Source: a virus (lineage: Duplodnaviria; Caudoviricetes). Taken from it: a DNA stretch of 64,000 bases. The position numbers were made by a program, and so were the translations under genes. The stretch lies in the IMG/VR virus record IMGVR_UViG_2565956520_000001, one strand, 5' to 3'. The notes beneath the pieces were generated by a model. It did not search any database, had not been told where the DNA came from, and saw only the letters and a program-made list of their open reading frames with translations. Below, piece after piece: positions 26,029 through 46,900 of this stretch (within the stretch, counting starts at the first letter, position 1; every line of letters begins with the position of its first letter).

Positions 26029-26077
26029 GGGTAGCATTTGGGTAGCAATTCCGCATTTGGGTAGCATTTGGGTAGCA
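26029..26077 (+). repeat. GGGTAGCA x4, as two copies of GGGTAGCATTTGGGTAGCA; putative arm-type sites of right integrase
   Basis: Copies at 26029, 26040, 26059, 26070, directly before the integrase ATG. Confidence 0.75.
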
Positions 26078-26082
26078 AAAAA

Positions 26083-28041: not shown

Positions 28042-28388
28042 GAGATCTCCCTTATAAAATCTTCCAGCCCACTACCTTTCATATCCTTCAGACAAATCCT
28101 TAACGATCCTTCCACCAATTTCGATTTGGTAACTACTCCGAATTTTCGCTTAAGCTTTACCTGCATCAGCTCCAAATCTTCATTTACATCTTCATCTACA
28201 TAGATAGTAAGTTTGTAAGGCTTAGCTTTTGCCGTCTTGACGTCAGGACGTCCAAGCGGTTTAACGTCTGGACGGTTTGCCGTTTGGTCGCTTTGCTGCT
28301 CTGACGGCTTACCGCCACCCTGATCTCCCAACACGCTACCCAAAATATCAGGAGTCTTCTCCCTCTTGCTACCGCCTGGCATATTCAT
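28038..28388 (-). CDS. ParA partner, ribbon-helix-helix centromere-binding protein (type Ib, ParG/omega-like)
   Basis: Flexible N-terminus (KREKTPDILGSVLG), C-terminal YKLTIYVDEDV..SKLVEGSL RHH; overlaps parA stop. Confidence 0.72.
   Translation of the reverse strand: MNMPGGSKREKTPDILGSVLGDQGGGKPSEQQSDQTANRPDVKPLGRPDVKTAKAKPYKLTIYVDEDVNEDLELMQVKLKRKFGVVTKSKLVEGSLRICLKDMKGSGLEDFIREIS
28229..28316 (+). repeat. Octamer array A, 11 in-phase units, inside the RHH gene
   Basis: TTGCCGTC TTGACGTC AGGACGTC CAAGCGGT TTAACGTC TGGACGGT TTGCCGTT TGGTCGCT TTGCTGCT CTGACGGC TTACCGCC. Confidence 0.82.
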
Positions 28389-29118
28389 CCACCGTGCGGA
28401 CCAGCACTTCATACATTTTAGCTCCTGTGCATTCAGGAGAGTATTCAAAAATAGTCTGTCCATGACCAAAGCTTTCAGCCAGTCGCACGTTAACGGGGAT
28501 TGGTTCCCGCACTATTTCACCGAAATGATCCTGCAACTGGATCAAAGTCTCTTCCGACTGTTTCACCCTGCCATCCAAAAAAGTAGGGACAATGTGATCA
28601 ATTATTATATCTTCACGATACTTCTGAACCTTTTTGAAGTTCTTAATGAACTCCGCAACTCCATTCAGAGTCATAGGCATGAGAGAAATGGGACACACCA
28701 ATTCATCTACGTAAAAGAACACGTTAATATTCAGAACATCCCAACCTGGCGATGTATCAAAAATCACGTAATCAAAATTCATGGATTCAAGAGGCTCAAG
28801 CAGCTCTGTAAGAGCCATTTCCCGCTTCATGTCTTTGTTAGATATCCATTCCTTAAGAATGGCCAAATCAGCCCCACCCGCTATAACCTGTAAATTTTCC
28901 CGGGCCTGCACCAAACAATCTTCTAACGCGACACCACGAGTCACATCAGTCAAACAGTATTTGGGCTGCAAACCCAAATACGGACTCACCTGCCCTTGGG
29001 TATCCAGATCAATCAGCACCACAGACTTACCGCGCCGCGCCAGCCCATGAGCCAAGTTAACGGCGGTAGTAGTTTTACCTACCCCGCCCTTTGACAAACA
29101 AACGGCTATTTTCCGCAT
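28369..29118 (-). CDS. parA: ParA/Soj family Walker-type ATPase
   Basis: KGGVGKTTTAVNLA, LIDLDTQG, FDTSPG, E....G..IFEY motifs. Confidence 0.95.
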   Translation of the reverse strand: MRKIAVCLSKGGVGKTTTAVNLAHGLARRGKSVVLIDLDTQGQVSPYLGLQPKYCLTDVTRGVALEDCLVQARENLQVIAGGADLAILKEWISNKDMKREMALTELLEPLESMNFDYVIFDTSPGWDVLNINVFFYVDELVCPISLMPMTLNGVAEFIKNFKKVQKYREDIIIDHIVPTFLDGRVKQSEETLIQLQDHFGEIVREPIPVNVRLAESFGHGQTIFEYSPECTGAKMYEVLVRTVDEYARR

Positions 29119-29522
29119 GACTGTCCACCCTGACCACCGTACTGAATACTAATGAATGCTCCTGGCAATTTTACCAGCAAAGCATCCATCAGTTCCTGTG
29201 AAGACATTTCCCGCTGGTTTTCCTCAGCGATCCTTTTTTTCAGCTCAGTAATGGTCAAAGCTCCCGTGGCTTCATCAGATAGAACTCTGAACTTCGGGCC
29301 TTCACCTGTTCGAATCCAATCTGGATCCACGCCGCCGATCTCAAGAGCTTTAACAAACCACTCTGCCGGAATTGAGTTCCGACGCTTGGCATCAGATATT
29401 GACGATTGGCGAATTCCCAAAGCTTCAGCCAGCTTAACCTGAGTCGGTCTTCCTTCTATAAGAAACGCTTCACCAAGCCTCAGCAGTACCGCTTCAAATT
29501 CGATTGTGCCTCTCATAAGCAT
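29106..29522 (-). CDS. Phage CI-type (186-like) HTH repressor-family protein
   Basis: QVKLAEALGIRQSSISDAKRRNSIP..W..GVDPDWI.TG.G; GGAGG RBS at ATG 29522. Confidence 0.82.
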   Translation of the reverse strand: MLMRGTIEFEAVLLRLGEAFLIEGRPTQVKLAEALGIRQSSISDAKRRNSIPAEWFVKALEIGGVDPDWIRTGEGPKFRVLSDEATGALTITELKKRIAEENQREMSSQELMDALLVKLPGAFISIQYGGQGGQSCGK

Positions 29523-29664
29523 GAAAACCTCCGTTTTGTTTTGCTTTATTCCTCGCCGGAATACAGAATCACTTCCATTTTCCGGCCAGAAATAAAACTT
29601 GCCAAATCTGCAAACATAACCACCTGAAATAATGGCTTTATGATTAGAAAACCCAACATTGCCA

Positions 29665-29988
29665 TTAATCACCGTCCAGAATATCTACTATACTGGGGTT
29701 ATCTTTAAGTGTCGGGAGAGCCAGACGCACAGAAGCGCGAATGTATTTTGATTGCTGTCCACCTGAAATTTTAAGGAGGTCATCCTTCATCTTTGCAGAC
29801 ATGGCTACAGATACATTTTCAGTAAGGGGACTTTTGCGTTTGCGGGAGAAGCTGGTGGCAGTGAGAAGGTCCGTAGCGTGCGCTTCTTTGCGATTCTTAA
29901 AAGACAGAACAATCGCAGCAATAACTACAGCAGCCAGCGTACAACAAATGATGGTTAGGGAAACGTCAATTCCACTACCTTGCATCAT
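29665..29988 (-). CDS. Hypothetical protein, N-terminal TM and possible C-terminal RHH
   Basis: Hydrophobic N-terminus; VSVAMS..MKDDL..SKYIR. Confidence 0.45.
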   Translation of the reverse strand: MMQGSGIDVSLTIICCTLAAVVIAAIVLSFKNRKEAHATDLLTATSFSRKRKSPLTENVSVAMSAKMKDDLLKISGGQQSKYIRASVRLALPTLKDNPSIVDILDGD

Positions 29989-30374
29989 GCTACCCTCGCT
30001 TTTGGGCCGGTCTTTTGAGCTTTTGTAGGTAGAGGAACCAGATGTTTTGGAATTTTAAAACCCTCTTCACCTAACTCTACACTGCAAAGTTTCTCGTAAA
30101 CAGATAGCTTTGTGTACTGGCTATTCAAAAACTGGGACAGCTGCTGAGGAGTAATATCTAGCTCTTTAGCTACATCCTTTTTTTTAATTCCATTGGCCAC
30201 AAACCATGCATCCAAAGCACGCTTTCTGCTTTGACTGAGATTATCGTTTAGTGCTAAAGACAAAAGTGCTCCCAAGTTATCGGTTACAGGGTGTTTGTTC
30301 AAAGGCCACCCCGAGTAACTAAATATTAATTTAACTCTAAAGTTGTGATTATCCAACTTACTACTAAAAATCAA
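29985..30374 (-). CDS. Cro-like XRE HTH protein (true start probably ~30302)
   Basis: GIKKKDVAKELDITPQQLSQFL. Confidence 0.7.
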   Translation of the reverse strand: MIFSSKLDNHNFRVKLIFSYSGWPLNKHPVTDNLGALLSLALNDNLSQSRKRALDAWFVANGIKKKDVAKELDITPQQLSQFLNSQYTKLSVYEKLCSVELGEEGFKIPKHLVPLPTKAQKTGPKARVA

Positions 30375-30390
30375 GAAGAAAAGTAGATTT

Positions 30391-30780: not shown

Positions 30781-30793
30781 AGAAAAAAGAATA

Positions 30794-30840
30794 CCCCTTC
30801 TGGTTCAAAGGATTGTTTGGACCGGAGGGGGAAATTTTTT
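30794..30840 (+). terminator. Long hairpin after repressor
   Basis: CCCCTTCTGGTTCAAA / TTTGGACCGGAGGGG followed by T run. Confidence 0.55.
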
Positions 30841-30962
30841 AGGATTTGATATAGGTAGTTGGATTGAAATATGGAATAAGCATTGACAATTATAAGTATA
30901 ATGACTCTAACAAAATTGAAATTGAAAACAATTATTTTTACATTCTAACATACACAAATACT

Positions 30963-32552
30963 ATGAAATCAATACAAGTTGAAAATCTAAAAAGTCTTGT
31001 CAAAACACCTAAAATTGAAATTAAACCTATTACTATTCTTGTTGGCAAAAATAGCAGTGGGAAAAGCACCTTTTTAAGAACCTTCCCACTTTTTAAACAG
31101 AGCGTAGAGGAAAACATAAAAGCTCCAATACTTTTTTGTGGAAACTATGTAGATTTTGGTGAATTTGGTGAAATCAGAAATAAGAGCACTAAAAATGATT
31201 CTATAACATTCACTATTGAATCAGAAATTGATCAAAAATCGCTACTAAATAATGCTTATAGATATAGTTTTAACTTAAGCAAATTTATGGATCAAAATAG
31301 TAATGAAATTCTTCCTATAAAATTCATATCAAAAATAAAAAACAAAGTAAAAAATGTCCGTAATACTTATTTAGAATCTTTTAAAATATCTATAGCAGAC
31401 CAGAATTTAGACTTTAAATTTGACGAAGACTCGAAGTTGATTGATCTCAATATTAATGATGAAAGCTTTAAAGATTTTTTAGCTGACATATATAGTACAA
31501 ATTCTGGATTAGTACCGAATCTCATAACTAAAATATCCTTAGATAAAAATTACATATACAGCCATAGCTGGGTCTTTCCGCAATTCCAGGAACAATCTCG
31601 TTACGAACGCTTGGTGAAAATAATTAAGAAACACGTCTATAATACAACTAGTGATGAAAATATTGCCGACATTGTGCGCTCCATATCAATCGGATCCAAA
31701 TCTTTCACCTTATCAAGCTGTAAAAACGATTTTCTAAAAACTAAAACTTGGATTAAAAAAGCTAAAACGTGGACTACCGATTCCAAAGAATTTCAAAGCG
31801 TTAACAATGCTTTATTGTTTGAAAATTTTATGAGTATGGTAAATTTTATTGGTAACCATTTTAAATTATACTCTCAAAGAATTAACTATATAAGTCCTTT
31901 TAGAGCTTCTCCAGAAAGGTACTATCGCCATCAAGAATTAGCTGTCCATAACATAGATCCGCAAGGTAAAAATACAGCAATATTCCTTGACAATCTAACC
32001 AACAGGCAAAAAAAGAATTTAGAAGAATGGACCGACAACAATTTTGATATAAAACTTAAAACAACATACAAATCAGGTCATCTTTCTATTGAACTTAAAG
32101 AGAATAAATCTGATTTTTACATAAATATTGCTGACATAGGATTTGGTTATTCTCAACTTCTGCCTATTATTATCCAACTTTGGTTCAAAACTACTAAAGA
32201 TCATAAAGACATAATCTTTGAAACTGGATACGAAACATTCGCTATTGAGCAGCCAGAGTTGCACCTACACCCTAAAATGATAGGTCATTTTACGGATTTA
32301 CTAGTAAAACTGATATCTTCAAATCATTTAAAAGAAACAAATATAAAACTAATTATCGAAACTCATAGCAAGTCACTTATTAATAGAATTGGTCAACACA
32401 TAGCTAAAAAAAACATTACTCCTGACTCAGTAAACGTAGTTATATTCGACAATAAAAACGGCTACGAATCAAACATAGACATTGCCAAATTCAATGATAA
32501 AGGAATGTTAAATAACTGGCCTGCTAATTTCTTTCTTCCGGAGCGATTTTAA
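30963..32552 (+). CDS. ABC-type (AAA_15/AAA_21) ATPase with DUF3696-like C-terminus
   Basis: GKNSSGKS Walker A, IGFGYSQLLP signature, IEQPELHLHP Walker B/D-loop, IIETHS H-loop, terminal NWPANFF. Confidence 0.88.
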   Translation: MKSIQVENLKSLVKTPKIEIKPITILVGKNSSGKSTFLRTFPLFKQSVEENIKAPILFCGNYVDFGEFGEIRNKSTKNDSITFTIESEIDQKSLLNNAYRYSFNLSKFMDQNSNEILPIKFISKIKNKVKNVRNTYLESFKISIADQNLDFKFDEDSKLIDLNINDESFKDFLADIYSTNSGLVPNLITKISLDKNYIYSHSWVFPQFQEQSRYERLVKIIKKHVYNTTSDENIADIVRSISIGSKSFTLSSCKNDFLKTKTWIKKAKTWTTDSKEFQSVNNALLFENFMSMVNFIGNHFKLYSQRINYISPFRASPERYYRHQELAVHNIDPQGKNTAIFLDNLTNRQKKNLEEWTDNNFDIKLKTTYKSGHLSIELKENKSDFYINIADIGFGYSQLLPIIIQLWFKTTKDHKDIIFETGYETFAIEQPELHLHPKMIGHFTDLLVKLISSNHLKETNIKLIIETHSKSLINRIGQHIAKKNITPDSVNVVIFDNKNGYESNIDIAKFNDKGMLNNWPANFFLPERF

Positions 32553-32553
32553 A

Positions 32554-33693
32554 ATGATTTTTGAAATTGACTCCAGCATATCTGATTTTCTTAAAAATGA
32601 GACCGGAAATCGTGATTTAACCATGAAATGTTTAAAGAAGGTCGAGGCTCTTCTATTAAATGCTAGCGATGGAAAAAATGTTATCTTTTTTGAAGATATT
32701 GAAATTATAGAATCATTAATTGACTGCGGAAAATTTTCAGAACCGACGGGTTATTTCCTTGAATACCTAAGAGAAAACTTTGCATCTACAGGATCATTTA
32801 TAGAATTAACAAGTAGACACATCAAAATTGTTTTAGAATGTGAACCCGAAATCATTATTAACGACAAAAATCATACTGTAGTAACATTACCTATTTTTAA
32901 ACTCGATCAATCTTTTTTTGGTAAAAGCGTGCTGCTAACAGAAAATCTGGTAGACGGTAAATTTTATAAGAGAATGACACAGTGTTATTGCAAAAATTAC
33001 GGACAAAATATAGATTTTGATTTTGAACTAAAACATGGCGGTGGCAACAGCACAGGGACAGTATTTAAAGAAACTTTTAACAATCAAGATAAAAATTGCT
33101 TATGCATTGTTGATTCTGATAAATCTCACCCCGAATGTAACTTTAAAGAAACGGCTAAATCAGTTTTAGACGAGCATAACAATTCAGATTTAGCTAAATT
33201 TATATCCGACTTCTACATCTTAGAAGTAAAAGAGGCTGAAAATTTGATCCCAACGGAAGTCATCGAAAAAGTAATCGATCCTCAACAAACTGATAATTTT
33301 AATACTTATAAAAGTTTAAGTAACGAGGGCGCACAATTTTTTGACTGCAAAAAAGGAATTAATCGACGGTCTTTTTCAAAAAATAGAGATCAACTTCATC
33401 TCGAGTTTTGGAGAAAAGAGCTTGAAGGAATTGATCCAAATGCAAATGACTTTTTATCCCAAATTGCCAATAAACCTGCGGGTTGCATGACAAACTGTAC
33501 AGGTTGCCTTAATAGAAATTGCAAGCAACCTTACTGCGGAGGAATTGGAAGCAAAATCTTAGATAACTCTATTGATATAATCAATAATGACGAACAATAC
33601 TCATTACGCGAGAATATTCAAAAAGAATGGGAAACCATTGCTAAGAAAATAATTACTTGGTCAATTGTTCAACCAGAATATCGATTTTCATAA
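32554..33693 (+). CDS. OLD-like TOPRIM nuclease candidate
   Basis: LLTENLVD, HGGG, CIVDSDK (DxD), EAENLIP motifs in TOPRIM order; 1 bp after the ATPase stop. Confidence 0.68.
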   Translation: MIFEIDSSISDFLKNETGNRDLTMKCLKKVEALLLNASDGKNVIFFEDIEIIESLIDCGKFSEPTGYFLEYLRENFASTGSFIELTSRHIKIVLECEPEIIINDKNHTVVTLPIFKLDQSFFGKSVLLTENLVDGKFYKRMTQCYCKNYGQNIDFDFELKHGGGNSTGTVFKETFNNQDKNCLCIVDSDKSHPECNFKETAKSVLDEHNNSDLAKFISDFYILEVKEAENLIPTEVIEKVIDPQQTDNFNTYKSLSNEGAQFFDCKKGINRRSFSKNRDQLHLEFWRKELEGIDPNANDFLSQIANKPAGCMTNCTGCLNRNCKQPYCGGIGSKILDNSIDIINNDEQYSLRENIQKEWETIAKKIITWSIVQPEYRFS

Positions 33694-33729
33694 ATTTTTA
33701 AGAAATAATACGAGAAATACTATCCATAT

Positions 33730-34425
33730 CTAGCGATTAAATTCAAACGGATCAGGAACATTCTCATAGAACACCTGTTCCAGCTCATGCAGATCAACTT
33801 TGAAATATTCTCTTTTGCGGTTAATTCTGCAAGCATCTAGTTTGACATGAAGTAACTGTTCGGTCTGGAATGGCTCCATGCACTTAAAATAAAACTCAAC
33901 CTTAAAAGGCATAGGGACTCCTGTCCCACTCCCGTCACGGCCTTTGTACAGATCTTCTGCTCTTCTATGTGGACAATGCTTTGTATATCCAACTTTATAC
34001 AATCCCGGCATTGCGGGATTAGAAAGGCAATACACACAGCCCTCATATTCAATTTCACGCCACGCGCTAGGGGTAAAAACTTGCCGTGCAGTTGGAGTAA
34101 AAACGACATTTTTATTTGTAAGCAGTTTTGGTTTTACAATGTCATCCTCTACAGCCTTTCTCTCCTGAATATTCACATCAGGCATACTTCGGTTGACTGA
34201 AACAGGAAAAAACCTTGATTCAAGATGGTTATAGCTTTTAAAGTATCCCCACAAAACCAAGATAACCCCAACAATTTCGGCAATGGATTCAAACCCCTGA
34301 CCTAGCAATGGAGTAATTATCAAGTCTGATATATTTACCCCGAATATCAAACCACAATATATTGCAAAGACAAAACCACATACTCCAAAAATCCAGTCCC
34401 ATAATAACTTAAAAAAATAGCGCAT
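33730..34425 (-). CDS. Membrane-anchored T5orf172/MUG113 (GIY-YIG superfamily) protein
   Basis: Two N-terminal TMs; GCVYCLSN..PGLYKVGYT..R..L..GVP.PF..EQLLH..L...R....REYF. Confidence 0.82.
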   Translation of the reverse strand: MRYFFKLLWDWIFGVCGFVFAIYCGLIFGVNISDLIITPLLGQGFESIAEIVGVILVLWGYFKSYNHLESRFFPVSVNRSMPDVNIQERKAVEDDIVKPKLLTNKNVVFTPTARQVFTPSAWREIEYEGCVYCLSNPAMPGLYKVGYTKHCPHRRAEDLYKGRDGSGTGVPMPFKVEFYFKCMEPFQTEQLLHVKLDACRINRKREYFKVDLHELEQVFYENVPDPFEFNR

Positions 34426-34517
34426 TATAGCAGTCCTTTACACCGAGAATACTCACAAGATTGTATGCCAACAAGAACCTATTTTTAAACAATATTCACC
34501 ATAATCAGCAAGACAAC

Positions 34518-34552
34518 AAAAAAAGCCGGAACGCACGACGGCAGTTCCGGCT
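34518..34552 (-). terminator. Intrinsic terminator downstream of the Hailong-like operon
   Basis: AGCCGGAAC/GTTCCGGCT 9-bp stem with U tract on minus strand. Confidence 0.6.
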
Positions 34553-34695
34553 ATATCTTTATTAAGATATATTTCAATACCATCAACACATAAAGCGGCA
34601 ATAGTTAAAGACTCTACATCATACACTCAAAAAGACTTTCCGACTCACATGAAACACACTGAATATTCATTTCATAATACTTGAGTGATTTACAA

Positions 34696-34998
34696 TTAAT
34701 TTTCTGAACAAAAGTAGTCTTCTAATCCTTCAATCTGCCTATTCACTGCATTTTCAAGTTCAACATACTCACCAGTTATCTGCTGCTGACTTTGGTTCGC
34801 CAAAAAAAGAAGACTGCTAGATAATCCTTGAATCAACAAGACCAATTTGTCGTTTTGATCCAATTTATTCTTTAGCACCCACCTAGAAATTGAATTCTGC
34901 GACAAACCAAAAAGAGGTTCGCTGCTATCTAAAAAACGATCATTAATGATCGTTAAAACACACCGTTGTTTATTAAGACGACTTTTAAAATCACCCAT
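34696..34998 (-). CDS. 100-aa helical protein, third gene of the Hailong-like operon
   Basis: 8-bp overlap with NTase stop; GGAGG RBS. Confidence 0.7.
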   Translation of the reverse strand: MGDFKSRLNKQRCVLTIINDRFLDSSEPLFGLSQNSISRWVLKNKLDQNDKLVLLIQGLSSSLLFLANQSQQQITGEYVELENAVNRQIEGLEDYFCSEN

Positions 34999-35620
34999 AA
35001 AAACTATCTACCTCCTTTATCAATCTTCTCATCCAATCATCAACGATAGGTAAAGAATCAATCGTTTCACAAATCAATTCTCTAGATGGAACACTTCCTA
35101 CCCCACGAACACTAAGAATCCGTGCAGACTGTAAGCATTCATATGCGTTCTTGGAAATGATCAAACTTTTTTCAGCCAACTCCAAAGCCGAATTTCTCGA
35201 AAAAGTTGGTTTAGTACCTAAGGCCAACGAATAGCAAGTTGCTAGATTCCTTACTGCCAAAAAAAGCGTTGAAAGCTCAAACACCTGACTATTAGTTATT
35301 TTTACAGTAGCCCTAGCAACTTCGAAAATATTGTAGAATTTCCTACAATCACTTATCGAAGAAGTATATTTATTCGGCATGCCCAAAGACTCAATGTAAT
35401 CTATACCATCTTCTGAATACAACAGCCTAGATTCATAATAAAGATGCCATGCAAAAGGATTTCCTTGCTTCCAAAGTAATTTAATTTTTTCCGGTGAATA
35501 GATAGAAAATGTTAGCGGATCAATGCGAGACAAATTAGTGTCTACAATGGCCAACAAATCAATATCAGAACTTAAATCAATTTCACCTCGACAGACTGAC
35601 CCAAAAGCATAAATGTGCAT
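34991..35620 (-). CDS. halB: Nucleotidyltransferase, Hailong HalB-like
   Basis: FGS..RG....SDIDLL Pol-beta motif; helical C-domain; penultimate Tyr (SFYG*); paired with pentapeptide/TM gene. Confidence 0.78.
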   Translation of the reverse strand: MHIYAFGSVCRGEIDLSSDIDLLAIVDTNLSRIDPLTFSIYSPEKIKLLWKQGNPFAWHLYYESRLLYSEDGIDYIESLGMPNKYTSSISDCRKFYNIFEVARATVKITNSQVFELSTLFLAVRNLATCYSLALGTKPTFSRNSALELAEKSLIISKNAYECLQSARILSVRGVGSVPSRELICETIDSLPIVDDWMRRLIKEVDSFYG

Positions 35621-35621
35621 T

Positions 35622-36437
35622 TTATCTTTTATTAAACCTTTTAAGAATTATTGACATAAAAAATCCAAACATAACTAGTCGAACGAATTTTATCACTGTT
35701 AAGGATACAGAACTATAGCTTTTAGGGGAGAATGTGCCTAAAAATATTTGTGGAGCCACCTCCACCGACTCCCATAATTCAGAAACGAGTTTTGATTCGG
35801 TATGATATATAAAATTAAAAAAAGCGATGCTCACGAACACCAGCCCCACAGCTCTACACAATTTATATGTACTTTCACCATTTCCCCAAATAAAATCTAA
35901 GCTAATAAAATTAACATAGCTCATAAAAGATTTTAGACGAGCAAAGCCTTTATATTTTCTCCTATAGTAAGACTCTTTAGAAAGACATGACTTACGTAGA
36001 TGAACCTTAGTAGATTCTAGTTCTATCTTTATTGCCTTATTAACTGACTGGACTTCGCCCAGAGATTGATAATTTTTACGTAAAGTTCGTGCAAATGAAC
36101 TTTTTAAATTATCATATGCAGGACAACATACATCAAGAATTTCACTAGTGATAATTGTTTTATCAAAGTAAGAATAATCAAAAGAGCATCCTTCAAACGT
36201 GCTACCATTAAAATTTGAATTAATAAAACGACATCCAGTAAAATTACATGAATCAAAATTGCAATTTCTTAGATACGAAGAATCAAATATACAGTATTTG
36301 AAATCAACTTCTTTAAAAGTTTTCCCCTTTACAACTAGCCGCAAAAATAATTTATTAGCTAAATCTATATTTGCAAGATCCTCATTTATTTTTTTATCTG
36401 TTTCAATAATCCTATCGCTATCGGTTAGAATATCCAT
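35622..36437 (-). CDS. halA: Pentapeptide-repeat plus 2TM/pore effector, Hailong HalA-like
   Basis: VDFKYCIFDSSYLRNCNFDSCNFTGCRF pentapeptides; WGNGE then TM-pore helix-TM. Confidence 0.78.
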   Translation of the reverse strand: MDILTDSDRIIETDKKINEDLANIDLANKLFLRLVVKGKTFKEVDFKYCIFDSSYLRNCNFDSCNFTGCRFINSNFNGSTFEGCSFDYSYFDKTIITSEILDVCCPAYDNLKSSFARTLRKNYQSLGEVQSVNKAIKIELESTKVHLRKSCLSKESYYRRKYKGFARLKSFMSYVNFISLDFIWGNGESTYKLCRAVGLVFVSIAFFNFIYHTESKLVSELWESVEVAPQIFLGTFSPKSYSSVSLTVIKFVRLVMFGFFMSIILKRFNKR

Positions 36438-36516
36438 AATCTATTTAAGCCTTGATTTAGATGTTAAAATCAACCTTTCTTTTAAGAAGAACTAACCTGT
36501 TATAATAAAATCAACT

Positions 36517-37242
36517 CTATAATTTATCAACATTAAGAATAGAATATAAATCAATTTCTTTTGGATCTAAACCTGCGAGATGCAAAGCAATCTGAGCCTT
36601 AACAACAGCAGAAATATCCTTATTTTCAATACTCTCAACTAAACATTGAGATTTCAACATTTGATTATCAGACCTCAACCTATCGTAAAGAGCAGTTGCT
36701 CTTTCTCTAGTTTGCTCAGACTGTTTAAAGAATAACAGCGCAACACCATCAATTACAACTCCAGGCATAATTTGCATATAGCTACTAAAAACATCTGGTG
36801 AAATTAATGCTGCTTTATAGATTATCAAAACAAAACCAACAGTAGCAGCTACTACACTAAACCAAAATTGAACTTTAGCTTGAGCAAGAGCCTGATGATG
36901 ATAACCTTTAACAAGATCTTGAATAACCCTTCCGTCATAATTGAGCGTTTCATTAACTCCTCGCCCCAACTCGCTGGATCTATTCAAACCAGCCCTTCCC
37001 CCAGCAGCCATACCGCAACCGGCCACTTCCCCACTACTAAAGTCATCAGTTTTTTTTACCTTTAAAACTTGGGATTTTGCCTTCTCAGCAATGCTTTCTA
37101 TCTCGTCTTCTTTCTCTTTTTGTTGCTTTCGATAAAATGAAGAGAGTAGAGAAGTTACTAGTCCTAAGACAGCAGATATCAATCCAGCCATAATTGTTAC
37201 AACAGATTCAGATGCTAGCGAAGCGACTATATCCAAGCTCAT
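36517..37242 (-). CDS. Membrane protein with TRADD-N-associated-like 2TM domain
   Basis: YHHQALAQAKVQFWFSVVAATVGF..VALLFFKQS...RERAT.LYDRL; extra N-terminal TM. Confidence 0.65.
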   Translation of the reverse strand: MSLDIVASLASESVVTIMAGLISAVLGLVTSLLSSFYRKQQKEKEDEIESIAEKAKSQVLKVKKTDDFSSGEVAGCGMAAGGRAGLNRSSELGRGVNETLNYDGRVIQDLVKGYHHQALAQAKVQFWFSVVAATVGFVLIIYKAALISPDVFSSYMQIMPGVVIDGVALLFFKQSEQTRERATALYDRLRSDNQMLKSQCLVESIENKDISAVVKAQIALHLAGLDPKEIDLYSILNVDKL

Positions 37243-37313
37243 AATTTAATATCCTGCTTAACTTTGTTTAACTTTATTATTCATATAAAAATATTACATA
37301 CAAAGTCAAATAA

Positions 37314-37369
37314 TCACTTCCCGATCACCCGTCTCACAACCAAATTCCGCTTCTCCAAAAGCCCATCAA
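37314..37369 (-). pseudogene. Relic copy of the last 17 codons of the giant gene
   Basis: Reads DGLLEKRNLVVRRVIGK*, versus DGLLEKRNLVVRRVMK* at 37908-37960. Confidence 0.85.
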
Positions 37370-37371
37370 GC

Positions 37372-37415
37372 AAAAAAAGGCCGAAACCACCCAAGAAAGG
37401 ATAGTTCCGGCCTTT
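37372..37415 (-). terminator. Intrinsic terminator after the 120-codon membrane ORF
   Basis: AAAGGCCGAAAC/GTTCCGGCCTTT stem with U tract on minus strand. Confidence 0.6.
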
Positions 37416-37496
37416 TAAATTTCTTTTACTAAACTCAATCAAGCACAAAAATGAAGTTCTTCACACGTCCGCAAATATAATTACACTAGGATATTG

Positions 37497-37856
37497 TCAT
37501 ACCTTCACTTGCTTCTTTCTTAACTTCAAAACCCCTGCTCCAAATTCTATTTCTTCATAATCTTTATATAACGCAACAAGAACAGTCACCCCTATAGCTA
37601 CAGCTGGTATTATTGCGGCTATTTCCATGCCAGATAAAGCGGCAACCGAAGTGACCGCTGCAGCTCCAATCGGGCCTGTTAATGCGGCAACACCTCCAAG
37701 ACCCAACATTGCAGCAATGCCTGCGGCACCAACTAATGCAATTTTTTTTGTACTATGAAGCTTGTCAGCGAATTCACCATAAACGATGATTTGATCGGCT
37801 CCACTACTCATAGCTTCTTCAAGTTCTTCTTTCGTATAAACTACAACTTCTTCCAA
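37497..37856 (-). CDS. Small Gly/Ala-rich membrane protein
   Basis: AAGGAG RBS before TTG 37856; glycine-zipper-like hydrophobic core. Confidence 0.65.
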   Translation of the reverse strand: MEEVVVYTKEELEEAMSSGADQIIVYGEFADKLHSTKKIALVGAAGIAAMLGLGGVAALTGPIGAAAVTSVAALSGMEIAAIIPAVAIGVTVLVALYKDYEEIEFGAGVLKLRKKQVKV

Positions 37857-37907
37857 AATAGCACTCCTTATATTCATAAATAAAAACAACTAAGCCTATT
37901 CAAACTA

Positions 37908-40900
37908 TCACTTCATAACCCGCCTCACAACCAGATTCCGCTTCTCCAAAAGACCATCAATCCGCACCCGCTTCTCATCAGGTGTAAGCTTCCTGGAACG
38001 ATGAATCTGTCGCATAGCAGTTTCAATCTGAGCAAGCGCACGGCGTAGCTGATTGTATGGCTGGCGTTTAGCAAGAATCTTTCTGTTATCCGGATCTTTC
38101 ACCAGAGCTTTGGCTTTATCCGCTTCGCCAGTTTTTGCGTAGTTCATTACCGTTGAATAGAGTTCATCGGCTTGCTCAACCATGTCGTACAATTCTGTCA
38201 GATGGCAGCTATGCCTTGAGGGTGTAGATCTAAAGAAACTTTTAATTAGCGGCATGTCGTCTAGACGTCTGGACGGCAATTCCGGTGCATCCACCATTTC
38301 GCGGGTTACAATGTCCGCCATGCTCATCACGTAAACACCCAGCGTTCCGAAATAGCCATTAACAAGATGCTCGATGCGCTTAGGACTAGTTCCTGTCTTC
38401 TCACCAATCAAAGCTGCTGTCTCGCTGGTACGATGATCGCGTTGCGCTCCAGGCTGAAGCCTTTTCAAACGCATAGGAACGATCGCTCTGCCAGTGAAGA
38501 AACTCTTGTCTGCCCACTGCTCAAGAATCGGCGTTACAATCTGCGGAGTGCCTACAGAGAATGTCTGCGTCAGCATAAACTGAAGACGTTCACGAAGCAG
38601 ATCCCCGTCCTTACCATCCAGCGAATACTCGGTTAACCTTTCCGGAAGAGTTCCAAATATGGCTCCAATCTCAAAAGGTTTAGGCATTCTGAAATGTTTT
38701 TCATCCACAAAGAAGTGATAGTAATTGTCCCGATCCCAATGTTCCAGTCCCTTAAATTCTTCCCGATCCCGATTATTCAGATAGAGCAACACAGAAGCCA
38801 GCGCGACCATTGCGCCCTTGGTCATAAATCCGGACGGATTCTCATACGCCCCTCTACCCAATCTATTCAGCCCGACCATTCTTGCACCGAAGAACGGGAC
38901 AGTTTCACAAAGGAACCGTGTGGCCAGCCAGTCACCGCCCATGGAATAATCCATGATGTCCTTGGCTTCATACGCAGCTTCAAGATGACTACCGCCCTTT
39001 TTCTTTACACCTTCATAAAGGCGCGCACGGGTCGCATTCTCAAATGCAGAACCTAAGTCCTGCCATTTCATCCAGCCCAGTTTAGCAAAGTTGGCCAACT
39101 TTTTAGGAGTATCGAGAATTGAGTCACGATCAATTTTATGCTTCTTTACCAGCTTCTCAACCAACAGCTTTGCAGCCGCAGGATCATGCCCAAAAGCATA
39201 ACCACCATGGAAAGCTGCTCCGGCGGCCATCATTTTAATAGTGTCTTCATCCTTACTCAGAGTTTTGATTGCACCCTTGAATGACCCGACCACAGGCAAA
39301 AAAGTTCCAGTCCGATCGACGCCCCAACCGTGGACCGTATCGCGCACAAGGTTGCGAACCATGAAGTCAGGAGTGGAAGTAATTCCAGTTGTAAGCATCC
39401 GCTTAAACAGCCGAGCTGTTTTCATTCCGAAGTTATTCCAGCTCTGCATATTTACCGAAGTCAGCGATCGGAGCAGGAGCGGATCAGCGATGTGGTAATA
39501 GACAGGCTTGCCGTCACGAAGCACAGAAACAACATCCTTTGCATCCGGCTTTACCATCCTAAAAACAGTCTGCAATGAATCACGCTGCGCCTTGGTCATT
39601 TTGGCAACAGCATCTTCATCCCCGAACACTTTAACCAAGGAAGAGCGCAAAGCCTGCCCCTTCAGCTTAAGTGCTTCCCACTTAAATTCTGCATTGGTTG
39701 CAATGCCGATATTCTCAGCATGAACCATGGAAAGTTCCATAGCTCTGTTCTTCACAGAAGTGTCGATCAAATGCGAAAAGTTGCGGATGATATTTTCAAA
39801 CGGATCACCGAGATTCGAAGTTCCACCCCGTAGCCGGCGAATGCCAGAATACTGATTTGCAATTCCCTTGCTACCGTGTGGCGACTTAACACTTGCCTTC
39901 TCTTCACCAGTTTCATTGATACGATAGAAAGGAATATACTCGTCATGTTCCCAAAGAGTGCGACCAGCTGCGTTAATAACTCCGGCATCCTGAGCAAAGT
40001 CCAGAACCTTGGTTTTGAACTCGATATACTTCTTCTGAACCGCTTCATATTGCGCTTCACGGCCAGAATTCAGTTTGCAAAGTTCATCTATTTCCTCTTC
40101 GGTAAACAGATTCTCGCGCCCTTCAGCCATAAGCTTTTTAGCTCGAAGCCCCACAAGCCAGCCAGTGAATCTATCCAACTCATGTGCAACCGGCTCAAAT
40201 ATCGTTGCCAGCCCTTCGCCCTCAACATCCATAGCCCCTTCACGCCAGATAGGTGCGCCGTGCTCGATGACAGCCGCAATCTGATCAGCATGTGAAGTAG
40301 ACATTCTAGCCGCCACATAAGCGGACTCTTCCATATCCGTAACTCCAGCCGCTTTATCAAGATCCTTGAGCGAATCAAAACGATCAAACATGCCCTGGTT
40401 AAACTCAGTGGCCATAAATTCACGAATGCGCCCTATGCGTTCACCAATGGTAGTTTTTTCTTTAACTTGTCCGATCTTGGCCATAGCAGATTCACGAACA
40501 GGATTTGAACGGGAATAAGAAACGGCTTCAGCTCCACCTCTAGGTGAAGGAGAATGTAAACCGTCACCTTGCACTGTCCAGAAAACAGCATCAGCAACTA
40601 TACGGTTAATCTCACGGCGAGTCAGCGAACCGGGCAGACGTATGCGAAGCTTGGCCAGCCATTTCATGACGGCATCAACAACCTTACGCCACACCCCTTT
40701 TTCACGCTGAGTCAGAACCTTATTCTGATCCACCTTTTCAGCAAGCTGAGCCAAATATTCATGACTGGCCATATCTCTGCCGGAATCAGTGGCAAGATCA
40801 AAATCGTAATCCAAAGCTATATCTTTAAATTCTTTACTACGCTTTGCAGATCTCCCAACCTTGCGGAGCATCTGCACATAATCGCTGTCACCAAGAAGCC

Positions 40901-43900
40901 CACGCAATCCGTGATGCGCTCCTTGTTCATGCATCCAGAGTTCCACGGCCCGTTTGCGTGAAGAAATGTTCTCCGCAACCATCCAGACCTTTCCGGTCTT
41001 AGGATCATTGCAGGCTTCACAATAGCCGCCACCCTGCGCATTAAATGCCTTACGGATATGTTCAGGAAGATCTTCGAAAAGACTAACCACTTCCAAAGGC
41101 AGCGCGTTTTCAGCTCGTGCCTGAAGTTCCTGCACAGCTCCGCGCACGGATCTAACAGAAGTAGGATTACGAATAGTGGATGTCTTGGAGAAATGGATTG
41201 GATTATCAGAATCTGAGGATTGACGTTTAGACGCTTTGACGTCTTGACGTCCTGACGTTGTGCCGCTTTGACGGTCGGACGGCTTGCCGCTTTGTTGGCT
41301 TGCATACTCTGCGAGTACGGAAACAAGGGAATCACGGACTTTTTGAATATCTCTAAAATAACGGCTCGACTGATCATGTTTACCAAACACAGCCAGAACC
41401 TTATCAATCATGCGGCGTATTTTACGAGCTACACGGCGAAAAAGAGTAGGGTTTGCAGCTTCCAGTTCATGCCAGAAATCAGGGTCCATGAACTGTTCAC
41501 CGGATAAATTGCCAAGCAGCTCTTCATTAGCTTGCCCTGAAGACAACCCCTTTCCACCCGCTTTTCTAGTCGTGGCGTCAATATCTTTATGAAACCCACG
41601 CCAAGCTTCACCTTTGCGCTGAGACTGAGCAACCATAAGATATTTATTGTAAAGAGCCGGGGCATCACGCTTTAAAAAATGGATTATTTCGTGACCAAGA
41701 AGGAAAAGATGGGGTTCATTGGCATCTGGGCGCATAAAGACAACGCCCTGTTTTAGATCCGCATGAGCATCACCTGGGAGAATAGGTAGATCAGAAGCTA
41801 CATAAGTAATTTCCTTACCGAACAAACCAGCAAGCTTGTCCAACAAAGCAAAATCACCAGTTCTTACTCCTGACTCACTCTTTACTGATGCTGCTGGCAG
41901 GCTTCCTGTTTCAGTCTCTCGCTTTCTTCCGCCCCTAGAATCTGTTCCGGACGGAATTCCTTGCGTTTCTGTGAACTGACTTTCAGCCTCTCGAGTCTGG
42001 CTGCCTCCTGCTCTGCTACTTCCTCTGGATCTGGAAACGGAAACATGCAAGTCAACCGGGTCGACTTCGAAGATGGATCCATCTGCGAATTCGAGTCCGT
42101 ATTCCCTGCGGATTTTTTCCGCGTAAATATCTGTTCGTCTTGTTCTTCGTGGGTTTTCATAACTACTCCGCTTAACGAGATCAATATCACCAAGTGAAGC
42201 CGGAAGTCTATCCAGTTCTTGAGCTATACTTTCAAGCGGATTTTCACCCTGATAGAAAGCCCAGCCCTTTTCGGTTCTGTTCCATTTGGCTCCGGCATCC
42301 TTCAGAACTTTTTTGTTAGCATACGTCTCGCCAGTGACTACCCAGAAACCACCTTTTGAATTCGTAATTCTTTCCAGTTCAAGACCGGCATCATTAAATA
42401 TAGTCTCGCTATCAACTGTCTTAACGAATCTTTCTGGAGCTGTTACGTCCTGAATCCGCTCAAATAGTTCTTCAACTTTGCCAGCGTTAAAATCAATTCT
42501 TGATTTGGTCTGTAAATTCTCAGCACCTTCGCTAACCTTATCAATTATGACGATTCTGGTTTTAACTTTAGTACCGGCACGACCGAAAGTCTCAGGAGGT
42601 AAACCGAATTCGGCAACCTTATGCGCGTGCTCTGCTTCCTCAGATTCATACCACTTATCAAACTTGCGATCTGCCGCCGGACCTTCAGGGAGAATACAAA
42701 CAACTCGGCCACCCTCACGTAAATGAATGAATGCTTTGGCAAGATGATCAACCGCCATTTTGCCACCGCTACCAAACGGCGGATTCATGGCGATCCCGTC
42801 AAACTTATTTACGGCCGCAAGAGTTTCAAACTGATCATTGATTTTGCGCCCGTCACAAATAACAGACATCTTGGAAAACAATTCGTCAGAAGGTTCAACT
42901 ACCGTTATCTCAGCTGATTCAGGAAAGTACCTGGCAATAGCGCCATGTCCGGCTGAAGGCTCCAGAACAGATTGCCCAGGCAACAGATTTAACCATTCAG
43001 CCATCTTAAAACCTAGCGGTTCAGGAGTAGCGAAATAGTCCGCGCCTTCTCTGGCCTTGTTGCGTGAGGTCCGCTTTTGCTGGGAATAGTAATGGGTTTT
43101 AGCCTGATCGAATGGAGAAGACTTGCCGCTAAATGAATCTGACTCTTTGCCTCCCTGCCCTTGTTTCATGCTGGGAGAGCTTGAAGATGAATCAAGATAT
43201 CCTTCACGAAAAGCAGTACGCAGATCACGGGCAAGATCACCCATTGCAAGATTCTCAGCTGCTCCGGCACGTTCAGAAATTTTCTGCCCAAACGCTCTGG
43301 ACTCAAAAGAAAGCCCAGTCTTCAGATACTCAATAACTGCGTCTGACTTTAGGCCGAGGCGATATATCCGTCCTTCAGTTTGAATTGCATCAGTGGGCTT
43401 TGTGGGCAGGTAAAGCGAAACTAGAGCGCGCTGTTTCTCACCAGCTTTATCATGCAGTGAAATTCCTTCCTTCCCTGCATCCTTCTGAACAACAATGACA
43501 TCAACACCGCTCCGATCGTCATTGAAATCATTAACAGCTTTAATTCGATCCCTCTTAGACTCTTTACCGGAAAAGAATGCAGCCTTATCAGTGAAAGCCT
43601 TGTTCATTTCATCGCGCACATTCAAAAGACCACGCAGATCCATCCGTGAATATGCCGGATTGCTTGCAGCCCAAGCATCAAACTGCTTCATAATTTTGGG
43701 ATCACCACTTGCAAACCTTGCAAATCGTGCTCGATTAAATGGATGATCCGGAAGACCTTTATTTCTAGAATGGAAAACAACAACCTTTCGGCCAATATCC
43801 AGATGCTGTTGAACCCTCTCAACCGCATTCTTGGCTTTCAATGCCTCCAGCAAACTCATGGTGTAATGGTAGTCAAAAGCCTTATGTACTATTCCAGATA

Positions 43901-46900
43901 AGGCTGGATATTTTTTATGATCCCACATGGATTCGATCCCGGACTGAATCCTTTGCCCCAGCTCAGCCGGAACATCTACGAACTGCCGTGAATAATCTTT
44001 ATCTAGATTCAAACTCCGACCGGAAAGCGCACCTTTCTTTTTCAACCACTCATTGAACGCCCTTTCCATCAATGCGGAATCAACACCGGCTTCAGGAGTC
44101 GTAAGTTTATTGTAGCGCATTCTGTAGCCGAACTTGCTCATCATAAACTGATCCCAGTTCGATCCACTGTTATATGAACTGTTGGTGTCGCCACCTTTAC
44201 CCATATCGCTATCAAACAAAAAACCGTCCGCATAACGAATCGTTTTATCGTAGGCAAAAGGAGAAGCAGAAAGGAATACAACCTTGGTATTCATGATGCG
44301 GGCTACTTTGTCATCGATGCGCTTCAGCAGTGCTTCAGATAGATATTTGTCGGGGATGTTCCAAGGAGTTTCTTCAAAATTCTCAGTGAGCTTAAAATCC
44401 TTTAGCTTTTTGGCTTCCTTCAGCATGTCACTTTGAAAGACTTTTCTAGCACTGATATCAGGACGATTTGGTCCAGCCAGCCTGTGCATCATATTCAAAG
44501 CATGGGTATCATTACCCTGAGCATTTTCGCAAAGTTTGTGGGATTCATCGAATACGAGAAGATCAAAGTCACGAGCAAACAAGGCTTCGTTCTGCCCAAA
44601 ATTAGCATAGCTTGTGACAATAATGCCTTCACCAGAATCTTTAAGACCTTCAAGCTGGGTAATATCAAGGTGAAGATTTTGACCGTCTTCAATCCAATCC
44701 TGAGCTTTTTTATCGGTCGGAACAACTACGGCTATATTTGTCTTACCCTGCCGGACAAAACGCTTCATAACACCGAGTCCGGTGTACGTTTTTCCCGTAC
44801 CAGTCCCGTTGGTGAAAATGATTCCACGGTTTGTATCATCTTTAGTATTGGAAAAACGTGCTTCAGCTTTGGCAACGTCTTCCTGTTGCTCCGAAAAGAG
44901 AACGGGAAGAGTTTCGCGAATATTGCTTAGATCTTCAGTGCGAACCTGAGTGGAGGAATCCGCTTCTTGTTGAAGACGGACTTTATCGGCTAACGGTAAA
45001 TGTTGATCTGTAGATGTTTTTCGAAGGGCATCGCCCACACTTCCAGAGAGTTCGCTGGATAATCCGGACTTAGATCCCTGAGCTGTTCCTGATGCTCTGG
45101 AGTCAGTCGATTTTCCAGCGTCATCAGTTCTATGGATTCTTCCAGGCTCAACAGTTCCGGAAGCGCGTTCCGCAGTTCCATCCGGCCGCTCTGTTCCAGA
45201 TATGCTGTTATCGCTTCCCGTTCCAGTAGAAGAGGTAGAACCTGAGTGTAGGAGGTTATCGTCTTGCTCAAGTAACCCTGTTTCTCCATATCGTTCTCCA
45301 TTTCCTGAATCACTAGATCCGCCAGTTCCGGACTCGCCGGAAACAGTCCCTTCGCCCAGTTGGTTCTGAGTTTTTGAGTCTGAGCTATCTGATTCCAAAT
45401 GGCTTGAGGTACTTGATACATCTTTAATAATCTCCTTCTTGTCATTTATACTCTCAATAAAAGCCTTGTCAAAACTTTCTTCCGGCTTCGGAATAGACAC
45501 ACCGGGAAGTAGCCCCTGACCGCCATCCGTCATACTTGCAAATTTTGCATATTCTTCACAAAAAAACTGGAACTTCTGTGCTTTTACACCTTCCCATTGT
45601 CTTGCTCCCAACGCATCAGCAAGAACTCTTGTCTTCTTATCATTTAAGCCGGGAACAGTTTCAATAAGTTGTCCCTGATTAAGAAACTGCTTAACCGAAA
45701 TAGATTCACTTCTGGCTTTTCCGGCAATCCTTAAAGCATCTTGAATAGGGGAATTAAGACTCCAACCTTCCCCTCTACTATTTGCCTGAATAAGGGCAGG
45801 TAAAGCTCTATCCAACTTAGCTAAAGCAGATGGAGGAGCCATATCAAGAACATCATAGTTATCAACCACAACACCACGCAAGGTAGACTCAACAAAATCT
45901 TTTCCATCACTGTTTAAAAGTCCGGTTTCTTTGTTGAACAAACGTCCATGCTGTGTATCCTCAATTACACCATCATTTTTTAAACTACTGACAAAATCAG
46001 TTGATCTTGTTGAATCAAGAAACTGACGCAAAGTATCAAAAGAACCGAGTCCACGGCCAAGACTAGCAAGGGAATCTCTGGAGAGCATCCTTCCACGCGA
46101 AACAGCTTCAGCTTTTGGATCCAATCCTTGAGTAAAATCCTGATTGTAGATTCTGGAGGATCTGGAAAGGTCATTTACTTCATCCTGAAGGACTCTAACC
46201 AAAACAGGATTTTTCATTGTTTTGAGCTCTTCAGGCTTAAGGCCAAACTGTTTAGCCTTTCGTCTTAGCGTATTCTTATACTTAGTAGACTGGCCATTAT
46301 CCTGGTCATAAGCGAGAGCCAAAGACATAATACGGGAATTACCGCCAAGCGTAATTCCATCAGAAGTAATAATCGGAGGACCACTTGCAGCTGTAGGATT
46401 ATCATTTATAAAGTGACGAGGCTTAAGCGGTGAAGCATGTTTTTTAACCTTTTGCTGCTCAGCTGCATCAGAGTGATAAGGGCGTTCCTGCGCTTCTTTA
46501 GGATATGAAGGATGTCTGATAAAATTTTTATGAACGTCATGAGAAGGCACGACGTCTTCAAGTTCTCGAACTTCATACCTAATTGCATCTTGCCCGTCTG
46601 TATGTTCCAGCACAGATTCATTACCTTTTAAGCCTGCCGTCTTGACGTCAAGACGTTCTGACGGCAAACCGCCTGTAACTTCGTCTTGCAATTCCTGAAC
46701 AGCAGTATCAAAAACGTCTTCACTTCCCAGCTCCGGCAAAGCATCAAGCTCTGACGTCTGGACGTCTGGACGGTTTAACGGCAAAGCGTCTTGCTGCCCT
46801 GACGCTTCAATAACCTCCGGACTTTCAAGCTGTTCCAGTTCACGCACGGCAATATCCCATACGTCTTCCAGAGATCCGCCCTGATCTCTGTTAGAACTCA

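Follow-up and report, generated by a model that had tools for sequence, protein, structure and literature searches.

Partition systems with HTH-type ParB proteins have scattered centromeres, some of them intragenic and even located in the gene of the binder itself (N15 sopC-like sites; chromosomal parS, for example inside B. subtilis spo0J). Among RHH proteins, the omega repressor of pSM19035 binds cooperatively to contiguous heptads at several loci, regulating genes globally and also serving a ParA as its centromere-binding partner (PDB 2bnw title). ParG binds with one dimer per 4-bp box, the boxes being separated by 4-bp spacers in arrays of 8 and 12, and the parH/OF arrays of TP228 are degenerate, mix direct and inverted boxes, and combine operator and centromere in one (PMC3130281). 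[quoted passage not shown] In the mycobacteriophage RedRock, parS consists of 8 direct copies of an 8-bp motif, found at two separate loci (PMC7157519).

The DNA analysed here (the window, a stretch of 64,000 nt) comes from a prophage of Maridesulfovibrio (genome of 4.19 Mb), and its coding DNA carries five loci of contiguous octamers. The locus resembles the TP228 ParG system in that a small Walker-type ParA is followed by a small predicted RHH protein whose N-terminus is flexible, and in the 8-bp period of the boxes. It differs from it in that the boxes are GACG instead of ACTC, the spacers are T/C-rich and not clearly AT-rich, the arrays are located inside coding sequence (the RHH gene and a distant giant gene) instead of ahead of the operon, the element integrates as a prophage, and the RHH protein has no detectable sequence similarity to ParG. 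With RedRock it shares the condition of a temperate phage with par genes and 8-bp repeat arrays at more than one locus, whereas RedRock is integrase-less and extrachromosomal; the prophage has int and xis, and its arrays form in-frame segments of genes along 18 kb. To our knowledge, the RedRock parS loci have not been described as intragenic. Unlike the omega sites, with a 7-bp period and in promoter regions, the period here is 8 and the sites are inside ORFs, and unlike the HTH-ParB sites, which are single 16-bp palindromes with a spreading ParB, these are arrays of several 8-bp units, which give the encoded protein a periodicity of 8 residues. The giant gene, for its part, in which linkers join LPD38, ddrB-ParB and helicase modules, is similar to those for the LPD-containing polyvalent giants of phages and conjugative elements, and we know of no report of DNA-level repeat arrays in the linkers of such proteins.

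Genes Hosting the Arrays and Their Neighbourhood

The parA gene (28369..29118, minus strand) encodes a 249-aa Walker-type ATPase (AAA_31 1.5e-34, CbiA 3.5e-18, ParA 2.2e-14) with an N-terminal deviant Walker A motif, KGGVGKT; it is a small ParA without an N-terminal DNA-binding domain. Directly downstream, with its start overlapping the end of parA by 20 nt, there is a gene for a protein of 116 aa (28041..28388, minus strand), the candidate array binder, in which a disordered tail of around 55 aa precedes a predicted strand-helix-helix core, with invariant K-x-T-x-Y residues in the strand. In the AF2 monomer residues 1-60 are disordered and followed by two helices, the core having a pLDDT of about 72 (medium confidence), and a structural search with this model (VIA) returned almost exclusively RHH proteins (TraM, NikR, PutA, Arc, omega, ParG 1p94), with Z values of only 4-5.9. 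The assignment to the RHH fold depends on this medium-confidence model and these Z values; the protein had no match in Pfam or PHROGs, a PDB profile search gave only chance matches, and no relatives of it were found in viral contigs. A BLAST search of the par region against phage and plasmid collections was also negative.

A CI-like HTH repressor gene (29106..29672, minus strand) lies upstream of parA, and the RHH gene is always followed by that of a conserved helical protein, p175 (27517..28041, minus strand), for which searches of Pfam, of PHROGs and of solved folds were all negative. A 107-aa protein also lacked matches in Pfam and PHROGs. Near the par genes are a xis-like HTH_17 gene (27170-27517, minus strand) and, beside it, a tyrosine integrase gene (26083..27189, plus strand; Phage_integrase 9.4e-31). 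An ORF of 412 aa was discarded as a gene, being the antisense shadow of an integrase with no match in the protein atlas.

The second host of arrays is the gene of the ejection protein (37908..48410, minus strand), a giant of 3500 aa whose LPD38 (3.9e-39), ddrB-ParB (1.3e-19) and ResIII/helicase (4.5e-11) modules place it among the polyvalent, LPD-containing phage proteins. Searches with its C-terminus in metagenome and viral collections returned only one already known locus and one match of 29% identity.

Five Arrays of Octamers at a Period of 8 bp

The octamers, with CG in phase, follow the consensus YTTGACGK on the plus strand (MCGTCAAR on the coding strand). Array 1 (28228..28315; 10-11 contiguous octamers, PWM score of 51.9 bits) lies within the par operon, in the part of the RHH gene that codes for the disordered N-terminus, about aa 26-54. 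The other four are in the giant gene. Array 2 (38253..38276; 3 octamers, 24 bits) is in the LPD38 domain, where it encodes the peptide PSRRLDD; it is the weakest of the five sites, although its score is still higher than that of any match outside the prophage in the genome. The strongest is array 3 (41219..41295; 9-10 octamers, 75.5 bits), in an inter-domain linker, where TRF found a period of 8 with 6.8 copies and a 24-nt higher-order repeat. Array 4 (46633..46672; 4-5 octamers, 35.5 bits on the plus strand and 28.1 on the minus strand), before the ddrB-ParB domain, is partly palindromic, with direct and inverted boxes, and array 5 (46750..46805; 7 octamers, 38.2 bits, also called by TRF) lies like it in the N-terminal linker region. 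The independent TRF calls, at 41220-41273 and 46753-46772, have period 8, and the units are degenerate (73% matches). A sequence-only reading of this DNA had described five arrays of 11, 3, 9, 5 and 7 units, and inspection of the sequence confirmed these counts and coordinates, together with the peptide echoes RPDVK, RQDVK and RLDVK and the placement of a single array in the RHH gene, with the remaining four in that of the 3500-aa protein.

The arrays are specific to the element and to a period of 8; isolated octamers appear at background density (0.28 vs 0.26 per kb). In the 4.19-Mb genome, the 8 array matches of at least 20 bits all fell at the five loci, with a top score elsewhere of 17.1 bits, and scans with periods of 6, 7, 9, 10 and 12 produced 0-1 matches. 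The octamers used to train the PWM all have the GACG core, but this set was itself chosen for GACG. The pattern GACG-N4-GACG-N4-GACG has six matches in the genome, all of them at these loci, against none for the reversed-pattern control. All seven GACG chains at period 8 are in the window, where every chain with this spacing falls inside the five arrays, whereas the other periods from 5 to 12 gave 0-4 chains each, none in the window. A motif-free scan of lag-8 self-identity recovered the strongest array only, being too insensitive for discovery. No intergenic array was detected in the PWM scan of the genome or in the comparison of arrays among relatives.

This architecture is like that of ParG/parH, with a 4-bp box, a period of exactly 8 and arrays of 3-11 units; the spacer positions (K, Y, T/A, T) are T/C-rich and not AT-rich throughout. 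Read through the three frames, the octamer encodes a stop-free, hydrophilic unit of 8 residues, about DVKTSRRQ. The uniform orientation of the arrays is not independent evidence, since the consensus, when read from the opposite strand, has a TGA stop in one of three frames and coding forces the orientation.

Arrays in Related Prophages and Their Decay in a par-Deleted Relative

About ten related Maridesulfovibrio prophages (around 70% nucleotide identity) have arrays at matching places, namely where the RHH gene that follows parA encodes its disordered tail, and in the linkers of the polyvalent gene of around 3500 aa; arrays at orthologous sites were found in G001, G002, G005, G007, G009, L083, L085 and L087. 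Counterparts of array 1, inside the RHH gene, and of array 3 are present in every par+ relative, and array 2, located in a conserved domain without length variation among relatives, is kept in six of them and absent from the par+ G002 and the par- G003. Differences in linker length correspond to whole codons and keep the frame, as in G009, where the linker exceeds that of G002 by 8 aa (24 nt). These relatives are integrated, in Mb-sized chromosomal contigs beside host genes. Four GACG boxes at 8-bp spacing in other genera (G073, G083, G088, G111, G157 and G186) were rejected as counterparts, being unrelated GC-rich simple repeats in non-comparable genes. Distant homologous giants (G435, G424, G360, G263, G079 and a second locus in G001) had no cognate par module within the 28-40 kb examined and lacked tetramer arrays of period 8 altogether, but their distance is too great for this to test the link with par.

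G003 lacks the C-terminus of CI, parA, the RHH gene and p175, and has an intact giant ORF of 3509 aa. The four sites orthologous to the arrays have scores of 0, 7.3, 16.5 and 0 there, versus 19-75 at the same sites in par+ genomes, and this decay, which is partly due to synonymous changes, is seen in G003 only, at a divergence where the par+ genomes retain their arrays. The presence of the arrays thus co-varies with that of the par module, the par-less side being a single genome (n = 1), and the link between arrays and par genes in the sequence-only reading holds to that extent.

The partner of the arrays might be other than the RHH protein, as the deletion in G003 hit four genes, of which the RHH gene is just one, and took away p175 and part of the CI-like repressor, so that one of these two could be the binder instead; moreover, the constraint on the DNA described below is established independently of which protein binds. 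HTH repressors, however, usually act on longer palindromic operators and not on contiguous 8-bp direct repeats, and p175 matches no solved fold, DNA-binding or other. The arrays could also be micro-homology linkers for module exchange, given that the giant genes are mosaic and a homology breakpoint in G009 (46679) abuts array 4, but most breakpoints (41714-41840, in three genomes) are 400-550 nt away from array 3. Finally, they could be an mRNA element based on the GACGUC palindrome: two arrays fold better than their shuffles (z about -3.4), but the values are inconsistent from array to array (z of -0.9 and -1.7 in the other two), and the palindromic core explains these values trivially. All these options leave unexplained the array inside the RHH gene of every relative, and we consider that a DNA or RNA element with another partner or role is rather unlikely.

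Constraint on the DNA Rather Than on the Peptide

The octamer consensus (CCGTCAAA, ACGTCAAG, CCGTCAAG) recurs in all three codon phases, and when all the array octamers are considered the core C and G are conserved at 88-100% in every phase and at 98-100% at third codon positions. Resampling of codons with the peptide fixed produced scores of 3-13 bits, compared to 19-75 for the real arrays (p<0.001 with few exceptions), which are thus far above the level set by peptide and codon usage, and a count of in-phase CG that is defined by the flanks and free of the PWM gave p<=0.02 in the mid-linkers of 8 out of 8 par+ genomes. In array 1 this count was 10, where the peptide predicts 3.5 (p<0.0002). 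Between clades, identical residues share their codon in only 45-50% of cases, and synonymous sites are near saturation. In the mid-linker, three genomes share 11 of 13 codons, compared with a fraction of 0.41 along the gene (P=0.0016). Even amino-acid replacements preserve the core, as in the change from P to A (CCG to GCG) or the alternation of P and T (CCG/ACG). It is at the level of DNA, and not of protein, that the arrays are conserved.

These data bear on the possibility that the conserved object is a peptide motif (about P-S-x-R-x-D-V-K-T) of the RHH tail and the giant linkers, for example an arginine motif that stimulates ParA or a site for processing, with the 8-bp period as a by-product of the codons. 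Residues R39 and D41 are invariant in the alignment of RHH tails, RxDV-type peptides occur in 12 out of 12 family members and in linkers, KASSRHDV is found in both the RHH and the giant protein of G005, and the flexible tail of ParG is functionally important (PMC3130281). However, one such motif yields just 2-3 octamers, and the arrays run to 9-11; the peptide sets 3-6 of the 8 bases per octamer, and the free bases still match the consensus in all three frames; the residue after R is nearly always one whose codon starts with C (Q, H, L, P), with the exception of one F in G005; and synonymous sites are conserved. In G003, in addition, part of the peptide (QHDV...RRQ) is retained although synonymous changes (GAC to GAT and CGT to AGG) break the in-phase CG. 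A peptide-level origin of the pattern is thus improbable in our opinion.

Functionless, neutral relics left in disordered linkers by replication slippage of an 8-nt unit, of which only multiples of 24 nt survive, would fit the three-octamer step between the G009 and G002 linkers and the 24-nt repeat in array 3, but are very improbable, as the same octamer is found at five separate loci in two genes, orthologous sites keep it despite near-saturated synonymous sites, units with 73% matches imply rare slippage, the 3-unit site is in a domain of constant length, and decay is confined to the par-deleted genome. A phase-variable simple-sequence contingency locus was discarded, since the units are degenerate, the frame is kept in all relatives and the length changes by whole codons.

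Discussion

On balance, we lean towards the arrays being binding sites of the ParG-like RHH protein within coding DNA, with a role as operator, as centromere-like site or as both. We infer that the RHH protein binds them, that it does so cooperatively, and that this binding has a biological role. Each GACG box would be read by one RHH dimer, and adjacent dimers, 8 bp apart, would bind cooperatively, coating arrays of 3-11 boxes. Array 1, in the RHH gene, would act as a par-linked operator or centromere-like site, and the arrays in the giant gene could be extra loading sites, for the ParA-dependent positioning of the genome after excision or injection and/or to dampen transcription of the giant gene. 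We propose that such arrays are tolerated within genes because their three-frame read-out is stop-free and hydrophilic, and suits disordered tails and linkers.

Several observations count against the arrays being RHH sites, besides the qualified fold assignment and the single par-less genome: there is no intergenic array, whereas type Ib centromeres are normally upstream of the operon (PMC5016525); the invariant R39 and D41 are also explicable by a function at the peptide level; and the 3-unit LPD38 site is missing in the par+ G002. Regarding the partition sites proposed in the sequence-only reading, the arrays are real, element-specific, constrained as DNA and linked to par, with a layout like that of ParG and RedRock. 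The plain label of centromere, on the contrary, is doubtful for an integrating prophage, because int and xis are present and the relatives are chromosomally integrated, and in an integrative element a partition role is not obviously needed.

A more ambitious version, which we put forward tentatively and regard as possible but not likely, is that the RHH-ParA pair uses these dispersed, fully intragenic arrays both as a centromere and as a platform for silencing. The RHH protein would coat the arrays in its own gene and in the giant one, ParA would position the excised or injected genome, transcription of the giant gene would be blocked in lysogens, and selection on the DNA sites would dictate the sequence of tails and linkers, with their 8-residue DVKTSRRQ-like units.

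We know of no earlier description of RHH-type repeat docking arrays inside genes. If the RHH protein binds them, these would be the first case known to us of a repeat centromere or operator of type Ib style contained wholly within ORFs, including that of the binder itself. Repeat-type binding arrays would then overlay coding DNA by means of disordered segments, in such a way that protein sequence would be shaped by a DNA-binding code and the sequence of the linkers may be a read-out of it. The family, with about 12 members and one natural deletion, is a small and tractable system to test such dual coding, and raises the question of the role of a ParA/RHH pair in an integrating prophage. If true, the finding would also advise caution against seeking centromeres and operators solely in the intergenic DNA of compact phage genomes.

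Octamer arrays in the prophage

Direct reading located five arrays of contiguous octamers with CG in phase. One is in the gene of a candidate ribbon-helix-helix protein (RHH) downstream of parA (array 1, 28228-28315, 10-11 units) and four are in the giant gene of a polyvalent protein (array 2, 38253-38276, 3 units; array 3, 41219-41295, 9-10 units; array 4, 46633-46672, 4-5 units; array 5, 46750-46805, 7 units), in such a way that counts like the 11, 3, 9, 5 and 7 of the sequence-only reading were reproduced. Every gene concerned is on the minus strand, and the consensus is YTTGACGK on the plus strand, or MCGTCAAR on the coding one. Chains of GACG at a spacing of 8 were confined to these loci in the whole window. 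The window corresponds to C12:14158-78157 in a genome of 4.19 Mb, and throughout this genome the matches to three GACG boxes with 8-bp spacing (6/6) were inside the arrays, with 0 matches for the reversed pattern used as a control. The proposed periodicity check and PWM scan gave concordant results: among periods 5-12, GACG chains clustered at period 8 alone, a period also called independently by TRF, and 8/8 matches of at least 20 bits were at the five loci, the top score elsewhere being 17.1. As the PWM was derived from the arrays themselves, some circularity attaches to its score, though not to the exclusivity of the loci. With respect to background frequency, the arrays are exclusive, but single octamers outside them appear at background density, so only the arrays are special. 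Array 4 is near-palindromic (19/20 bases around CTTGACGTCAAG), mixes direct and inverted boxes, and its RNA shows a strong hairpin fold (z -3.35).

Genes carrying the arrays and their context

parA (28369-29118, minus strand) encodes a 249-aa Walker ATPase, and its end is overlapped by the RHH gene (28041-28388, minus strand), whose 116-aa product has a disordered tail of around 55 residues, encoded by codons that contain array 1, followed by a strand-helix-helix core. A structure search with the RHH model matched almost only RHH proteins, omega and ParG among them, with modest Z values of 4-5.9, and sequence searches found no named family. Among 5.8 billion proteins searched, the RHH family has 12 members, every named one from the host genus, Maridesulfovibrio, with 1-3 RxDV-type units in each tail. 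The gene p175 (27517-28041), always directly after RHH and with a stop/start overlap with it, encodes a protein that is helical throughout (pLDDT 80), matches no fold and no family, and is a possible third member of the par module.

The array-bearing genes neighbour podovirus-like structural genes, and the prophage carries an excisionase-like gene and a tyrosine integrase (26083-27189, plus strand; Phage_integrase 9.4e-31); a 412-aa ORF (25849-27087, minus strand) was rejected as a gene, being an antisense shadow of this integrase. Just to its left is another integrase (24668-25804), which suggests a tandem of two integrative elements. Immediately 5' of the first integrase start, 4.7 copies of the 11-bp unit GGGTAGCATTT (26029-26077) are possible arm-type sites. 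On visual inspection, 25870-25920 looks like the 3' part of a minus-strand tRNA gene, and CTTGAAATAA is present at both 25800 and 25867; ARAGORN detected no complete tRNA in the window. A cargo island of low GC (0.33-0.36) at 30800-37900, flanked by the par/immunity region and the giant gene, encodes an AAA_15/AAA_21 ATPase, a T5orf172 protein, a pentapeptide-repeat protein and a nucleotidyltransferase, and its content differs among relatives.

The giant gene (37908-48410, minus strand; 3500 aa) contains LPD38, ddrB-ParB and helicase modules. Array 2 is near the end of LPD38, array 3 is at a domain boundary, because distant homologues align only from just past it, and arrays 4 and 5 are in a poorly conserved region preceding the ddrB-ParB domain. 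Two same-genus genomes, G001 with 3854 aa and G009 with 3915 aa, have non-homologous sequence in place of the middle third of the gene (window 41700-47400; L031-L033, L078-L079), and in G002 the frame has only 1667 aa, so modules of the polyvalent protein seem to be exchanged. Other tandem repeats, in structural genes (48868-48933 and 50060-50151), have period 21 (3.1 copies) or period 15/18 and are GC-rich in the latter case (GCGGCAGTTGC...); these are codon-period repeats, unrelated to the octamer.

Syntenic prophages with around 70% nucleotide identity were found in five genomes of the same genus (G001, G002, G005, G007, G009) and in L083, L085 and L087, those of G001, G002, G005, G007 and L085 being in Mb-sized contigs or beside host genes. 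All eight carry parA-RHH and, in the RHH tail, arrays of the same octamer (3-10 units); mid-linker arrays (4-9 units) are present in every relative whose giant gene was recovered over that stretch, and N-terminal-linker arrays in most. That the arrays serve some other DNA or RNA role, or another partner, seems unlikely, as mosaic breakpoints mostly miss them and the folding of array RNA is inconsistent.

Conservation at the DNA level

On the coding strand a perfect array encodes (DVKTSRRQ)n, which accounts for the 8-residue periodicity and for the odd peptide echoes noticed earlier. A shared peptide motif could thus underlie the arrays, and the invariant R and D of the tail fit it; codon-level evidence contradicts this explanation and makes it quite improbable. 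One consensus holds for octamers starting at codon positions 1, 2 or 3, with 98-100% conservation of the C and G of the core even at third codon positions. Resampling of synonymous codons with the peptides fixed gave 3-13 bits vs 19-75 observed. A PWM-free in-phase CG test, with regions set by conserved flanks alone, was significant in 8/8 mid-linkers and 6/8 RHH tails of par+ (parA-RHH-carrying) prophages. Between clades, identical residues share a codon in only 45-50% of cases; in the mid-linker, 11/13 codons are identical across three genomes vs 0.41 gene-wide (P=0.0016; top 2.6% of sliding windows). The core survives amino-acid changes (CCG to GCG, CCG vs ACG), and the variable residue following Arg almost always has a C-starting codon. 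These data show that the DNA itself is conserved, beyond the peptide. The single orientation claimed earlier is present, but it is uninformative as evidence, because the reverse one puts TGA in one frame.

Link between the arrays and the par module

The G003 prophage is a close relative (nearest to G007, codon identity 0.64) with a deletion spanning the C-terminus of the CI-like gene, parA, RHH and p175, and with an intact giant ORF of 3509 aa. Its four orthologous sites score 0, 7.3, 16.5 and 0, vs 19-75 at shared sites in par+ genomes, and the in-phase CG test gives a non-significant p=0.18. The loss is partly synonymous (GAC to GAT, CGT to AGG), and part of the peptide persists. The expectation that relatives without par genes would be without equal arrays was thus borne out in one par-less genome, with four genes deleted. 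Array 2 is absent from the par+ G002, which makes it the least secure. Neutral slippage relics, with which the existing length steps of three octamers would agree, are a highly improbable origin, given that the arrays are kept across saturated synonymous divergence and that their decay is linked to par. A 107-aa protein (29665-29988) with a C-terminal strand-helix-helix-like pattern may be a second RHH. Its conservation extends to every relative, with 55% identity in the par-deleted G003, so this is not the protein whose absence accompanies the decay of the arrays.

Candidate role of the arrays

RHH proteins that bind arrays of 7-8-bp repeats, phages with more than one par site in the genome, and parS sites of HTH ParB proteins within genes are already known. 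To our knowledge, multi-unit arrays that pass in frame through both the gene of their putative binder and a remote giant gene, and give disordered segments an 8-residue periodicity, have not been described, and a full-text literature search found no example of centromere repeats in coding DNA. ParG of TP228 recognizes 4-bp boxes with 4-bp spacers, one dimer per box, and by cooperative binding covers arrays with 8 and with 12 degenerate boxes, which form operator and centromere (PMC3130281), and the RedRock parS loci have eight copies each of an 8-bp repeat (PMC7157519); the geometry of the present arrays is alike. Type Ib centromeres are normally upstream of the operon (PMC5016525), whereas here the array is inside coding DNA. 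As a sequence phenomenon the arrays are well supported; their function is putative. With modest confidence, we favour that they are candidate RHH-binding sites embedded in coding DNA, because their geometry matches, they are in the operon of the putative binder and they are lost with it. The integrative lifestyle counts against a simple role in plasmid partition, and the arrays may act as centromere, as operator or roadblock, or as both.
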